Assembly (NCBI GenBank): GCA_045564835.1
Contig: JBJLGN010000024.1
Location: forward strand, 6,265 to 70,264
Length of the DNA: 64,000 nt
From: Dehalococcoidia bacterium
GTDB taxonomy: Bacteria; Chloroflexota; Dehalococcoidia; Lucifugimonadales; GCA-002694895
Direction of reading: 5' to 3'
Shown: one piece after another, positions 8-2,135 of the stretch
How positions within the stretch are numbered: position 1 is the stretch's first letter
Layout of the letters: every line of letters begins with the position of its first letter
Position numbers and translations under genes: made by a program
The notes under the pieces: model-generated
Seen by the model: only the letters and a program-made list of their open reading frames with translations
What the model was told of the DNA's origin: nothing
Database searches by the model: none

Positions 8-553
8 ATGAAAAAACAAATCAAAATGATATCAATGCTATCAATGGCATTTTTATTAAGTTTCGGACTATTTGCTTGTCAAGGATCTGCTGGACCTGCT
101 GGTGAACCTGGTCTTCCTGGATTACCTGGACTTCAAGGTCCTGCTGGTGACCCTGGTCTTCCTGGATTACCTGGTCTACAAGGAGTACAAGGTGAACCTG
201 GTCTTCCTGGTAACCCTGGTCTTCCTGGTCTACAAGGAGATAAAGGAGATTCCGGTCCTGCCGGCCCTCCTGGCCCACCAACCTATTTAGTAGCTGATGC
301 TACAACTGCTGGAGGCGCAACATCAATATATGGTGCTGGGTTTAAAGCTAACGGTCAAGTTGCTGTTACAGCTGTAGCTGCAAAAGGTGGATTAGATAAA
401 TTTCTTGTTGGCGGTAAAGCTAATGCTAGTGGAGCTGTTGAATTATCAGTTACACTTGCTGATGACTGGCCAGCTGGAGTTTACACTCTAATAGCTGAAG
501 GCGAAGGTGGCGGATCAGCTGCTGCAGCTTTGAAAGTTTCAGAGTCTAAATAA
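8..553 (+). CDS. Collagen-like triple-helix repeat lipoprotein, paralog 1 (181 aa)
   Basis: Signal peptide ends in lipobox-like LFAC (Cys24). It is followed by 22 uninterrupted G-X-Y triplets ([13 protein letters not shown]...GPPGPP). A ~90-aa Ala/Gly/Val-rich C-terminal domain ([12 protein letters not shown]...[12 protein letters not shown]) is shared with the next two ORFs. Confidence 0.8.
83..280 (+). repeat. G-X-Y coding repeat with a 45-bp (15-aa) super-period G[DE][13 protein letters not shown]
   Basis: Direct reading of the translated ORF and DNA. Locally GC-rich compared with the surrounding AT-rich sequence. The same unit recurs in paralog 2 (727-861). Confidence 0.85.
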
Positions 554-580
554 GTATTTTAATTAAGTACTGAATTAAAT

Positions 581-622
581 AAAAAAAGGGACTAAAGATT
601 ATAAGTTCCTTTTTTTATTTTT
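581..622 (+). terminator. Rho-independent terminator after collagen-like gene 1
   Basis: 12-bp stem aaaaaaagggac / gttccttttttt (one G-U pair) with a 12-nt loop, followed by a T-rich tail. Confidence 0.6.
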
Positions 623-637
623 CAACAAGTTGTTTTG

Positions 638-645
638 AAGGAGGA
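638..645 (+). promoter_or_regulatory. Shine-Dalgarno sequence for collagen-like gene 2
   Basis: gaaggagg lies 6 nt upstream of the ATG at 652. Confidence 0.7.
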
Positions 646-651
646 AAAAAC

Positions 652-1137
652 ATGAACAATATTTATAAACTATTTATATCTACATTATCAATTTTAGTTC
701 TATCCATTGCATTAATTGCTTGCGCAGGTCCTGCAGGAGCTGCAGGTGACCCTGGACTACCTGGATTACCTGGACTGCAAGGAGTACAAGGTGACCCTGG
801 TCTTCCTGGTCTTCCTGGTTTACAAGGTGTAGCTGGTGCTGATGGAACTGCTGGTTCTTCAACTTCAATGAGCGCAACGTCAGCTGCTGCTGGTGGTGAC
901 ACTCATATTATGGTTGCTGGATTTGGATCAAAATCATCGGTTGCAATTACTGCTATAGCTGCCAAAGGCGGAATGGATAAATTCCTAGTCGGTGGATCAG
1001 TTAATGAAAGCGGTGCTGCAAAAATGACTGTTGGAATCGCTGCTGATTGGCCTGCTGGAGTATATACTTTAGTTGCTGATGGCGAAAACGGTTCTACAGC
1101 TGTTGCTGCTTTAGAAGTTACTGCAGCTGCAGAATAA
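652..1137 (+). CDS. Collagen-like triple-helix repeat lipoprotein, paralog 2 (161 aa)
   Basis: Lipobox LIAC (Cys24), 15 G-X-Y triplets, and the same C-terminal domain as paralog 1 (HIMVAGFGSKSSV...[12 protein letters not shown]). Confidence 0.8.
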   Translation: MNNIYKLFISTLSILVLSIALIACAGPAGAAGDPGLPGLPGLQGVQGDPGLPGLPGLQGVAGADGTAGSSTSMSATSAAAGGDTHIMVAGFGSKSSVAITAIAAKGGMDKFLVGGSVNESGAAKMTVGIAADWPAGVYTLVADGENGSTAVAALEVTAAAE

Positions 1138-1156
1138 TTTCTTACTAATAAATATT

Positions 1157-1201
1157 AAAAAGAAACAATTGGTAAATTCACCAATTGTTTCTTTTTTTTT
1201 T
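1157..1201 (+). terminator. Rho-independent terminator after collagen-like gene 2
   Basis: Perfect 13-bp stem agaaacaattggt / accaattgtttct (1161-1173 / 1180-1192) with loop aaattc, followed by T9. Confidence 0.8.
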
Positions 1202-1310
1202 ACAACAGTTAGTTAAACTAAAAAAATACTAAAATAATTAACTTAAAACAAATTACATATATCAAAATAAAAACCTAAAATGTAAATATTATTATTCTTT
1301 TAGTATTTTT

Positions 1311-2135
1311 ATGATAATAAGAAAAAATAAATTATTTATATATTTAATCCCCCTTCTAACGCTTTCTTTAATTTTAGGATGTGCCGGAGACGGTCCCCAA
1401 GGTCCTGAAGGTCCTCAGGGAAATAAAGGGAAAGTGGGTGAAAAAGGAGATCCTGGAATTCCAGGAATCCAAGGAATAAGCGGGCCTCCTGGCCCTGCTG
1501 GAGCTATAGGACCAGCAGGAAATGATGCTCCGCAGCCTCAGGCAACTATAATAACAATTCAAGATACTGAGTTTACAGCTAATGAATCAATAGAAATTTG
1601 GGGATCAGGCTTTAATCCAAGGGAAACTATTACAATTTCAATGCAATTCTCTGATACGCTAGATGTAATTATTGGTACTATTGTGAGCACAGAAAGCGGC
1701 TCATTTTCATTAAAAACAAAACCATTGTCTAATAATCCGAAAATAAAATCCCAAATTACTGATGGAACGATTTATACTCTTTTAGCTAAAGGGTCAAATC
1801 AAAGTAAGTCTAGTGCAGCTATAAAAATTATTTCTGAAAGAATAATTCCATCTCATTTAATATCACCTAATGCAAATCTGATTATTGCTGCTGCTGTTCC
1901 TAATGGGTCTACAGTCGCCTACGGATCAGGATTTAAGCCAAATGAAAATTTTATTATTGCTGTATTACTAAGCAATAGTAATACTCAAATACTAGGAGGA
2001 GGATCAGCTAATAATTCTGGTGCTTTTAATTTGGAATCCATCGTTGATTTAAGCCCAGGTATTTACACTGCTCTTGCCACAGGAGGAGAAGGATCTTCTG
2101 CTAGCGCCCCTTTATTGGTTTCATTAGACAAATAA
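1311..2135 (+). CDS. Collagen-like triple-helix repeat lipoprotein, paralog 3 (274 aa) with duplicated C-terminal domain
   Basis: Lipobox ILGC (Cys24) and 15 G-X-Y triplets (GPQGPEGPQGNKGKVGEKGDPGIPG...). Two copies of the xGSGFxPxE...G.YT.LA.G domain follow. Its codon usage is more AT-rich than paralogs 1 and 2. Confidence 0.75.
   Translation: MIIRKNKLFIYLIPLLTLSLILGCAGDGPQGPEGPQGNKGKVGEKGDPGIPGIQGISGPPGPAGAIGPAGNDAPQPQATIITIQDTEFTANESIEIWGSGFNPRETITISMQFSDTLDVIIGTIVSTESGSFSLKTKPLSNNPKIKSQITDGTIYTLLAKGSNQSKSSAAIKIISERIIPSHLISPNANLIIAAAVPNGSTVAYGSGFKPNENFIIAVLLSNSNTQILGGGSANNSGAFNLESIVDLSPGIYTALATGGEGSSASAPLLVSLDK

Follow-up and report, generated by a model that had tools for sequence, protein, structure and literature searches.

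What kind of protein is encoded by the three consecutive genes that open a 64,000-nucleotide stretch of DNA from a Dehalococcoidia bacterium (contig JBJLGN010000024.1; the whole stretch is called here the window), and what could such proteins do for the cell? A sequence-only reading of the window had described these genes, here P1, P2 and P3, as a tandem trio on the same strand, each coding for a lipoprotein with its lipobox cysteine at residue 24, an unbroken run of G-X-Y triplets (22, 15 and 15, respectively) and a C-terminal domain of ~90 aa, doubled in the third gene. Our analysis supports the view that P1-P3 are precursors of collagen-like lipoproteins with an immunoglobulin-like (Ig-like) C-terminal head. 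They belong to an undescribed family with hundreds of members, widespread in marine Dehalococcoidia and SAR202-like bacteria. We propose, with about as much confidence as doubt, that lipid-anchored trimeric rods display the Ig-like heads and act as a structural coat, pillar or spacer at the surface of a monoderm cell without peptidoglycan.

Architecture of the three proteins

The three open reading frames (ORFs) were found where the sequence-only reading had placed them, with the common architecture it had described (Table 1). In each protein Cys24 follows a basic N-region and an uncharged hydrophobic core. The lipobox was tested with a PROSITE PS51257-type rule, written as a regular expression (K/R in the n-region, an uncharged core, [LVI..][..][AGS]-C and the cysteine at residues 15-35). 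P1, P2 and P3 all satisfy this rule, as do 102 of the 120 top homologues, and most of the remaining homologues that fail it are evident miscalls of the start codon in which the LIAC is still present. Judging from this signal, Cys24 would be lipidated in the three proteins.

The G-X-Y tract starts one residue after the cysteine in P1 and P2 and three residues after it in P3. We reproduced the triplet counts, and the Pfam Collagen model (PF01391) scores above its gathering cutoff of 27.2 bits in each protein (43.7 in P1, 34.6 in P2 and 29.5 in P3). Concerning the C-terminal domain, pairwise similarity supports its presence in all three proteins and its duplication in P3: P1 and P2 share 53% identity over their full length (E 2e-42), the P1 domain is 40% identical to the second domain of P3 (E 4e-12) and 23% to the first one (E 4e-5), and P3 domains A and B are 32% identical to each other (E 4e-9). 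The exact P3 protein is present at NCBI as MFL2763056.1, "hypothetical protein [Dehalococcoidia bacterium]".

Table 1. Features of the collagen-like gene trio and of its convergent neighbour (positions in the window)
Feature	Position	Strand	Description	Evidence
P1 gene	8-553	+	putative 181-aa collagen-like lipoprotein precursor, one Ig-like domain	ORF; Pfam Collagen, E 2.3e-11
P1 signal peptide	8-79	+	lipobox L-F-A-C, Cys24 codon 77-79	read from sequence; lipobox rule
P1 G-X-Y tract	83-280	+	22 unbroken triplets (aa 26-91), 15-aa super-repeat, C-terminal GPPGPP
P1 Ig-like beta-sandwich domain	281-550	+	90 aa, C-terminal	AlphaFold2 model
Hairpin and T-run after P1	577-627	+	intrinsic terminator-like, possibly attenuator	z = -3.8; conserved in 6 MAGs
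GGAGG Shine-Dalgarno for P2	640-644	+	7 nt upstream of P2 start codon	sequence; conserved in L011, L014
P2 gene	652-1137	+	putative 161-aa collagen-like lipoprotein precursor
P2 signal peptide	652-723	+	lipobox LIAC
P2 G-X-Y tract	727-861	+	15 triplets (aa 26-70)
P2 Ig-like domain	862-1134	+
Intrinsic terminator after P2	1157-1201	+	17-18 bp stem, then T-run	z = -6.6
Weak sigma-70-like promoter candidates upstream of P3	1199-1281	+	TTTACA-17-AAAAAT, ATTACA-18-TAAAAT	tentative
P3 gene	1311-2135	+	putative 274-aa collagen-like lipoprotein precursor, two Ig-like domains
P3 signal peptide	1311-1382	+	lipobox ILGC
P3 G-X-Y tract	1392-1526	+	15 triplets (aa 28-72)
P3 domain A	1527-1838	+	Ig-like
P3 domain B	1839-2132	+	Ig-like
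glmU-like gene	2139-3494	-	NTP_transferase and hexapeptide repeats; convergent with P3

The collagen-like tract

The 15-aa super-repeat described for P1 and P2, G[DE][13 protein letters not shown], was recovered as a 45-bp period by Tandem Repeats Finder, with 3.0 copies at 101-237 and 2.0 copies at 744-831; the third P1 unit is a variant, [15 protein letters not shown]. The DNA units, however, are not near-identical as had been stated: they share 71-91% identity, that is 9-29% of the positions differ, mostly by synonymous changes, and no exact repeat longer than 23 nt occurs there. In the same way, the tracts do form the GC-rich island that had been noticed (GC 0.53-0.56 vs 0.32 for the window), but this island means nothing beyond the amino-acid composition, because it derives from Gly (GGN) and Pro (CCN) codons, while the GC content at third codon positions (GC3) is 0.07-0.18, which is the AT bias of the genome itself. 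The P1 tract, for example, has a GC of 0.56, a GC3 of 0.09 and proline in 39% of its X and Y positions. Concerning P3, its reported divergence holds for the sequence, but its codon usage is only modestly divergent, with GGA favoured over GGT and CCT still being the main Pro codon.

The tract length differs among orthologues. P1 orthologues have nearly identical heads and tracts of 9-26 triplets, with the GPPGPP beside the head conserved; P2 orthologues have 10-16 triplets and close P3 orthologues 15-16. The variation in repeat number that had been suggested therefore exists between lineages, but not within the population, where ten independent contigs show the same 22 triplets in P1; a rapid, phase-like variation is thus unsupported and was rejected.

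These contigs also bear on the possibility that the tracts are collapsed or chimeric, so that triplet counts and paralogue structure would be unreliable. Short-read assemblies can collapse repeats, truncation at the tract or close to it affects many database homologues, and a separate, apparently error-rich stretch exists at 41-47 kb of the window. However, the exact P1 protein occurs in 30 index blocks of public assemblies, of which we read 23 independent marine contigs from different projects (GCA_045564815.1, Tara and others). We fetched ten loci with the same gene order: eight of them are 100% identical in DNA over P1 and P2, and the other two carry 7-8 single-nucleotide polymorphisms (SNPs) in P1, outside the tract, and the same 22 triplets. 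The longest exact repeat is moreover far below read length. Therefore the collapse of repeats for which a check had been advised was not borne out, and a mis-assembly of the tracts can hardly be credited; the genes are correctly assembled.

Does the tract form a true collagen helix? We examined this in 189 complete members of the family. In 186 of them a single unbroken G-X-Y run fills the segment between the cysteine and the first domain (median 96%), starting one residue after the cysteine in 154 members and three residues after it in 27. Across the family, proline occupies 23% of X and 48% of Y positions (~36% pooled) and glutamine 16% of Y; the residues in X and Y change while the Gly periodicity stays unbroken, over 6 to 30+ triplets, and this argues for a real triple helix rather than for a loose linker. 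Pfam Collagen is above threshold in all of the 21 diverse homologues considered. From these sequence patterns we infer that the tract of P1-P3 trimerises as a true triple helix.

It is improbable, in our view, that the tract is only an extended polyproline-II-like spacer of a monomeric protein, holding a single Ig-like domain off the membrane with no triple helix. Bacteria are not expected to have a hydroxyproline system, P2 is poor in proline and in charged residues, and a trimerisation domain could not be demonstrated. In the AlphaFold model of the full-length P3 monomer the tract is extended and of low confidence (predicted local distance difference test, pLDDT, 51-69), as expected for a monomer in either case. 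However, a flexible linker needs no Gly at every third residue, whereas here the periodicity persists with X and Y varying, and the pooled proline content equals or exceeds the content of Scl2, a protein with a stable triple helix. In addition, the side-by-side tethering of three chains on the membrane would favour their association.

The C-terminal head domain

AlphaFold2, run with an alignment of 16 sequences, folds the P1 head as an Ig-like sandwich of 7 strands (pLDDT 94, predicted template modelling score 0.82), and the model of full-length P3 contains two beta-sandwiches, with pLDDT >90 in the domains. Searched with Foldseek against PDB, the single domain gave generic Ig-like matches only (E ~1e-4, template modelling score, TM, up to 0.74), including V domains of T-cell receptors, the C-terminal domain of Nir2 (TM 0.72) and NIS1; the Ig-like head suggested by the sequence-only reading is in agreement with these models. 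The two-domain model resembles arrays of tandem sandwiches, such as the C-terminal barrels of transglutaminase and the repeats of large adhesins (6xi3), and also complement and alpha-2-macroglobulin MG domains and the archaeal S-layer (surface-layer) protein 7ptp.

At the sequence level, the head had been considered to fall outside described families, and our searches are in accord, as no significant family was found in Pfam, NCBIfam, PHROGs or PDB sequences. The best Pfam Ig match of the window proteins is Big_6, with 15.9 bits against a cutoff of 27.6 (E 0.015; 1.5e-4 among homologues), and a profile search of PDB sequences with the head retrieved nothing significant, the best being actinohivin (E 0.065). 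Pfam families of the C1q type do not match P1-P3 at E <= 1.

A profile built from the four domains of the window retrieved 697 cluster representatives at E <= 1e-3 and 173 at E <= 1e-10. Giant surface proteins are among them, the repeats of which match Pfam MG2, Gmad2, Invasin_D3, Neocarzinostatin and Big; one of these proteins has an LPXTG anchor. The homology with these repeats indicates that the head belongs to the bacterial superfamily of Ig-like repeats, as a still unnamed branch. Gly, Phe, Tyr and Ala are the invariant residues of the head, and they occupy core or turn positions, with no evident binding site.

Distribution and evolution of the family

A search with P1 returned 619 matches, almost all of them from marine metagenomes, and the few named ones are annotated as "collagen-like protein [Chloroflexota bacterium]" or "hypothetical protein". 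A search with the P3 domains gave 29 close matches. The taxonomic breadth of the family rests on metagenome proteins, not on named genomes. In the literature on collagen-like proteins in Chloroflexi we found no description of this family. Two domains are present in 132 of the 189 complete members, one in 55 and three in 2. Many catalogue homologues (P0128, P0134, P0137 and others) begin exactly at the first Ig-like domain, without signal peptide and tract, suggesting that the G-X-Y repeat is a frequent breakpoint of contigs or gene calls, which biases the counts of family members and of tract lengths.

Six related metagenome-assembled genomes (MAGs), with a GC of 0.29-0.32 and classified as Dehalococcoidia or Chloroflexota, were compared. 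Three possess the trio with 22, 15 and 15 triplets, and in the other three the locus holds only a P1-like gene with 23-24 triplets and a P3-like gene with 16; P2 orthologues are found in L011, L013 and L014 and are absent from L012, L015 and L016. Going farther, distant homologues with 27-50% identity to P1 (L017-L022, one on a 2.7-Mb contig) are also convergent with glmU and downstream of an Opp-type transporter. A CorC/CBS gene lies between the collagen-like gene and glmU in distant loci of larger genomes, and the neighbourhood occurs with or without it. The tandem of a one-domain and a two-domain gene is present in the distant relatives L019 and L020 too. The position beside glmU and this tandem suggest that the locus and the two-gene arrangement are old and that P2 is an extra, clade-specific paralogue; a recent tandem amplification of the whole trio was rejected, since the pairing of one-domain and two-domain genes is seen in those distant genomes. 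The conservation of glmU as a neighbour may reflect either a functional link, for example with the glycosylation of surface proteins, or frozen synteny.

In a distant relative (L017, 3695-7642, and L018, 3485-7642; contigs of 0.85 and 2.7 Mb) the single collagen-like lipoprotein gene is directly preceded by a gene for a protein of 1315-1385 aa that matches nothing in Pfam. This protein may be located at the surface, as a large component and a possible partner; the 1315-aa protein of L017 does not contain the head domain.

Expression signals

Upstream of P1, just outside the window, the identical contig L001 shows a promoter close to consensus (TTGACA-17-TATTAT) and an AGGAGG ribosome-binding site. 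The claim that P1 and P2 each have their own intrinsic terminator is supported by a hairpin followed by a T-run after both genes (scores in Table 1): for P2 none of 200 shuffles folds as well, and for P1 six base pairs of the hairpin are kept through compensatory changes across the six MAGs. The P2 start lies ~25 nt past the P1 hairpin (spacer 577-651), too close for P2 to have a separate promoter; transcription of P2 thus probably depends on partial read-through of the terminator, in a graded expression with P1 above P2. Within the spacer, the strongest resemblance to a promoter (TTGAAA-16-TATAAT at 625-598) belongs to the minus strand.

An obvious Shine-Dalgarno sequence is lacking before P3, and its promoter candidates match 9 of 12 positions each, the count of such sites not being above the shuffled expectation. 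No terminator hairpin follows P3, which abuts the convergent glmU.

The signals of P1 and P2 are compatible with strong expression. The domains of these two proteins are rich in Ala, Gly and Val (GC 0.44-0.45, with 0.33-0.37 in the P3 domains), and from their composition P1 and P2 appear to resist the AT-driven amino-acid drift of the genome.

Proposed role in the cell envelope

The closest named RpoB belongs to a "Chloroflexi bacterium" (77% identity), followed by those of SAR202 cluster bacteria (~65%). SAR202 and related Dehalococcoidia are abundant ocean bacteria. Streamlined SAR202 lineages, having 29-33% GC and genomes of 1.1-1.6 Mb, dominate SAR202 in the sunlit ocean (PMC11994032); the ~32% GC of the window fits these lineages and supports the streamlined genome that had been assumed. 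Cultured SAR202, like other members of the class, have monoderm cells without peptidoglycan synthesis, with an outer, S-layer-like layer of unestablished composition (PMC10444878, PMC11994032).

On this basis we propose the following mechanism. The precursor would be exported by Sec, Cys24 of the lipobox would be modified with diacylglycerol and the signal peptide removed, so that the lipidated cysteine would become residue 1 of the mature protein. As the G-X-Y tract begins 1-3 residues after it, three membrane-tethered chains could zip into a triple helix, held together by the membrane on one side and by the C-terminal domains on the other, and the head-proximal GPPGPP of P1 could nucleate the folding. 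With the 0.286 nm rise per residue of the established collagen geometry, the rod would measure 18.9 nm in P1 and 12.9 nm in P2 and P3, standing on the outer leaflet of the cytoplasmic membrane. Its tip would carry one or two Ig-like domains per chain, that is three (P1, P2) or six (P3) per trimer. Because the class is monoderm and without peptidoglycan, the heads would be exposed at, or be part of, the outer layer, and rods and heads might reach or even constitute this proteinaceous layer. Such pillars or coat may fix the distance between membrane and surface layer, by analogy with stalked S-layer anchors.

A structural role is favoured because the gene keeps its synteny, as part of the core, between deeply diverged lineages, because the family is kept and multiplied in a very small planktonic genome, and because of the expression signals of P1 and P2 and their resistance to the AT-driven drift. 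A planktonic genome of 1-2 Mb in which the family has expanded to three copies would point to a basic cellular role rather than to a host-specific adhesion.

An alternative that we regard as possible, though somewhat unlikely, is that the same lipid-anchored stalk serves for adhesion or ligand capture, with heads binding particles, polysaccharide, cells or dissolved polymers and the three paralogues differing in reach and specificity. Scl1/Scl2, Lcl, Pasteuria Pcl and the collagen-like proteins of Burkholderia would be its precedents. Among characterised collagen-like proteins of bacterial surfaces, those with a name in NCBIfam (Lcl, SclA, SclB) are all adhesins, although P1-P3 match them via the tract only. 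The recurrence of the head in giant multi-repeat surface proteins (MG2, Gmad2, Invasin_D3, Big), one of them LPXTG-anchored, the likeness of the two-domain P3 model to the tandem repeats of the large adhesion protein 6xi3, the divergence of the paralogue heads (23-56% identity) and the variation of tract length between lineages go in the same direction. However, the source is a free-living plankter, extremely streamlined and without a known host, the gene belongs to a syntenic core and not to a variable island, the invariant residues of the head sit at core or turn positions, and no ligand-binding family was matched in the Pfam, Foldseek and PDB-sequence searches. If P1-P3 were adhesins, the result would be a routine one, with a known class found in one more phylum.

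Several observations weigh against the structural coat that we prefer. The proteins of classical S-layers are far larger and assemble into lattices, and a head of 90 aa may be too small for a canopy. The P2 tract has proline in just 23% of its X and Y positions and few charged residues, hence its helix may be marginally stable alone. Neither lgt nor lspA was seen in the 64-kb window or in the fetched flanks, which were the only DNA searched for them. The giant proteins retrieved by the head profile, with 700-4500 aa and 5-34 tandem copies of the domain, show a pattern typical of adhesins. Finally, the placement of the source near SAR202 is indirect, based on ~65% identity of RpoB, and the peptidoglycan-less state of this lineage is assumed from class-level literature.

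Granting the structural coat, the architecture can be read as a molecular ruler, with a rigid rod of defined length between a lipid anchor and an Ig-like cap, and thus as a testable candidate for an envelope component. A more ambitious version, which we consider unlikely, makes P1-P3 the main building blocks or pillars of the SAR202-type outer layer, with the tract length setting the width of the pseudo-periplasm, or else assigns them to mixed trimers like those of C1q. If true, a bacterial envelope would be scaffolded by membrane-rooted collagen triple helices, the tracts of 13-19 nm would set the pseudo-periplasm width and the paralogues might be matched in height, P1 (22 triplets, one domain) reaching ~23 nm and P3 (15 triplets, two domains) ~21 nm. 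A helix predicted to start directly at the lipidated cysteine, together with an Ig-like head without a family model, would be a distinct architecture among bacterial collagens; short, hydroxyproline-free and putatively membrane-anchored collagens from cold and temperate seawater could also interest biomaterials research.

Comparison with known systems

P1-P3 belong to generic classes only (collagen repeat, lipoprotein signal, Ig-like fold) and to none of the specific families tested. The order of parts is the same as in the exosporium proteins BclA/ExsJ of Bacillus anthracis/cereus, that is N-terminal attachment, G-X-Y rod and a C-terminal all-beta head, which is thought to nucleate the trimer. 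In BclA a strain-variable number of triplets sets the filament length, and P1 orthologues vary as well; BclA builds a surface nap and the binding of a host receptor is not its primary role. However, BclA has no lipobox and is attached to the exosporium basal layer, its trimeric head is a C1q/TNF-like jelly roll instead of a 7-strand Ig-like sandwich, and its tracts are GXT-rich and heavily glycosylated, whereas those of P1-P3 are rich in GLP, GxP and GxQ.

The streptococcal Scl1/Scl2 (SclA/SclB) resemble the proposed form of P1-P3 in having a trimeric stalk and a globular head on a monoderm surface, without hydroxyproline. The polarity is opposite: Scl1/Scl2 carry an N-terminal V-domain head and a C-terminal LPXTG anchor to peptidoglycan, no LPXTG is present in P1-P3, and Scl1/Scl2 are pathogen adhesins with other head folds. 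Against the Scl models NF038330 and NF038329 our proteins reach 16-30 bits (cutoffs 325-400), and against the Legionella Lcl model NF046116 18-29 bits (cutoff 500), in both cases via the collagen tract only.

The sequence-only reading could not assign a lipoprotein-type bacterial collagen to a described family. This holds for the head, which has no curated family, but not for the lipoprotein form, which is not unprecedented, since the collagen-like proteins of the Burkholderia cepacia complex (Bucl/Bcc-CLPs), defined by Collagen_mid (PF15984), are predicted lipoproteins with a collagen-like region (PMC10224339). As in P1-P3, they are often present in several copies per genome and vary in repeat number (PMC10224339). 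They differ for the diderm host, for other non-collagen domains and for being proposed adhesins induced on host contact; PF15984 was not among the Pfam matches of P1-P3 at E <= 1.

The stalked S-layer anchors of archaea that lack a wall (Sulfolobus SlaB, Staphylothermus tetrabrachion) offer a functional analogy only: a trimeric or oligomeric rod, anchored in the membrane and bearing beta-sandwich domains, keeps a protein canopy at a fixed distance from the membrane in a cell without peptidoglycan. Their rod, however, is an alpha-helical coiled coil anchored by a C-terminal transmembrane helix, and there is no sequence or fold relationship to P1-P3. The metazoan C1q and collectins also have three tandemly encoded chains with a short collagen tract and a C-terminal globular head, which raises the possibility of mixed trimers in our case; their heads, however, are gC1q or C-type lectin domains and not Ig-like, the tracts of P1-P3 are unequal (22, 15 and 15 triplets), and some related genomes hold only two of the three genes. 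Concerning the giant proteins of the MG2/Gmad2/Big type, their repeat unit is homologous to the head of P1-P3, but they have no collagen tract and no lipobox, one has LPXTG, and P1-P3 stay below every Pfam Ig threshold.

Genomic neighbourhood

The trio lies among housekeeping genes, with prs-secA upstream and then glmU, F420 ligase, leuB, leuS and rpoBC, and housekeeping functions fill the remainder of the window too (amino-acid biosynthesis, glycine cleavage, ATP synthase, infB, nusA). A horizontally transferred island was rejected owing to the native GC3 of the tracts (0.07-0.18). We also give almost no credence to an origin from phage tail-fibre-like genes, as a prophage remnant or a moron, and rejected it; many collagen-repeat ORFs of bacteria are of that kind. 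Families of tail fibres in PHROGs are indeed matched, with E down to 5e-14, but only through the G-X-Y tract, and the head alone gave 0 matches in PHROGs. No relative was found among 2.9 million viral contigs, and the best structural match in BFVD (E 1.9e-3) is a generic Ig-like fold. The housekeeping neighbours, the synteny across distant lineages and the native GC3 argue against a phage as well, and a lipobox signal peptide is not a feature of tail fibres.

Between secA and P1, contig L001 encodes at 9140-9784 a hypothetical protein of 214 aa rich in Lys, Tyr and Asn, conserved in all ten fetched contigs. It was considered as a fourth paralogue and rejected, because it matches no family in Pfam or NCBIfam and contains neither a G-X-Y tract nor an Ig-like domain; by eye, no signal peptide is evident in it.

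Elsewhere in the window, the region 41255-47150 contains a 5.4-kb stretch without any ORF of at least 150 aa, in an otherwise tightly packed genome, and several genes seem to be split into pieces across shifting frames. The ORF of the ATP synthase a-subunit spans just profile positions 3-82 of 217; three pyrF-like fragments are present at 42983-43769 (-), a fragment of an ABC ATPase at 44094-44498 (-) and ThiF/MoeB-like pieces at 46311-47142 (+). This region looks like the product of local indel errors in the assembly, or like a decaying region. Two adjacent amidohydrolase genes overlap by 86 nt at 47137-49750 (-), and two adjacent, convergent amidase genes overlap by 4 nt at 58831-61718; both are small paralogue pairs in a streamlined genome. 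Finally, an ORF of 308 aa at 62610-63536 (-) has an RNase H domain at its N-terminus and a MoaC domain at its C-terminus, being either an unusual fusion or two genes joined through a lost stop codon.

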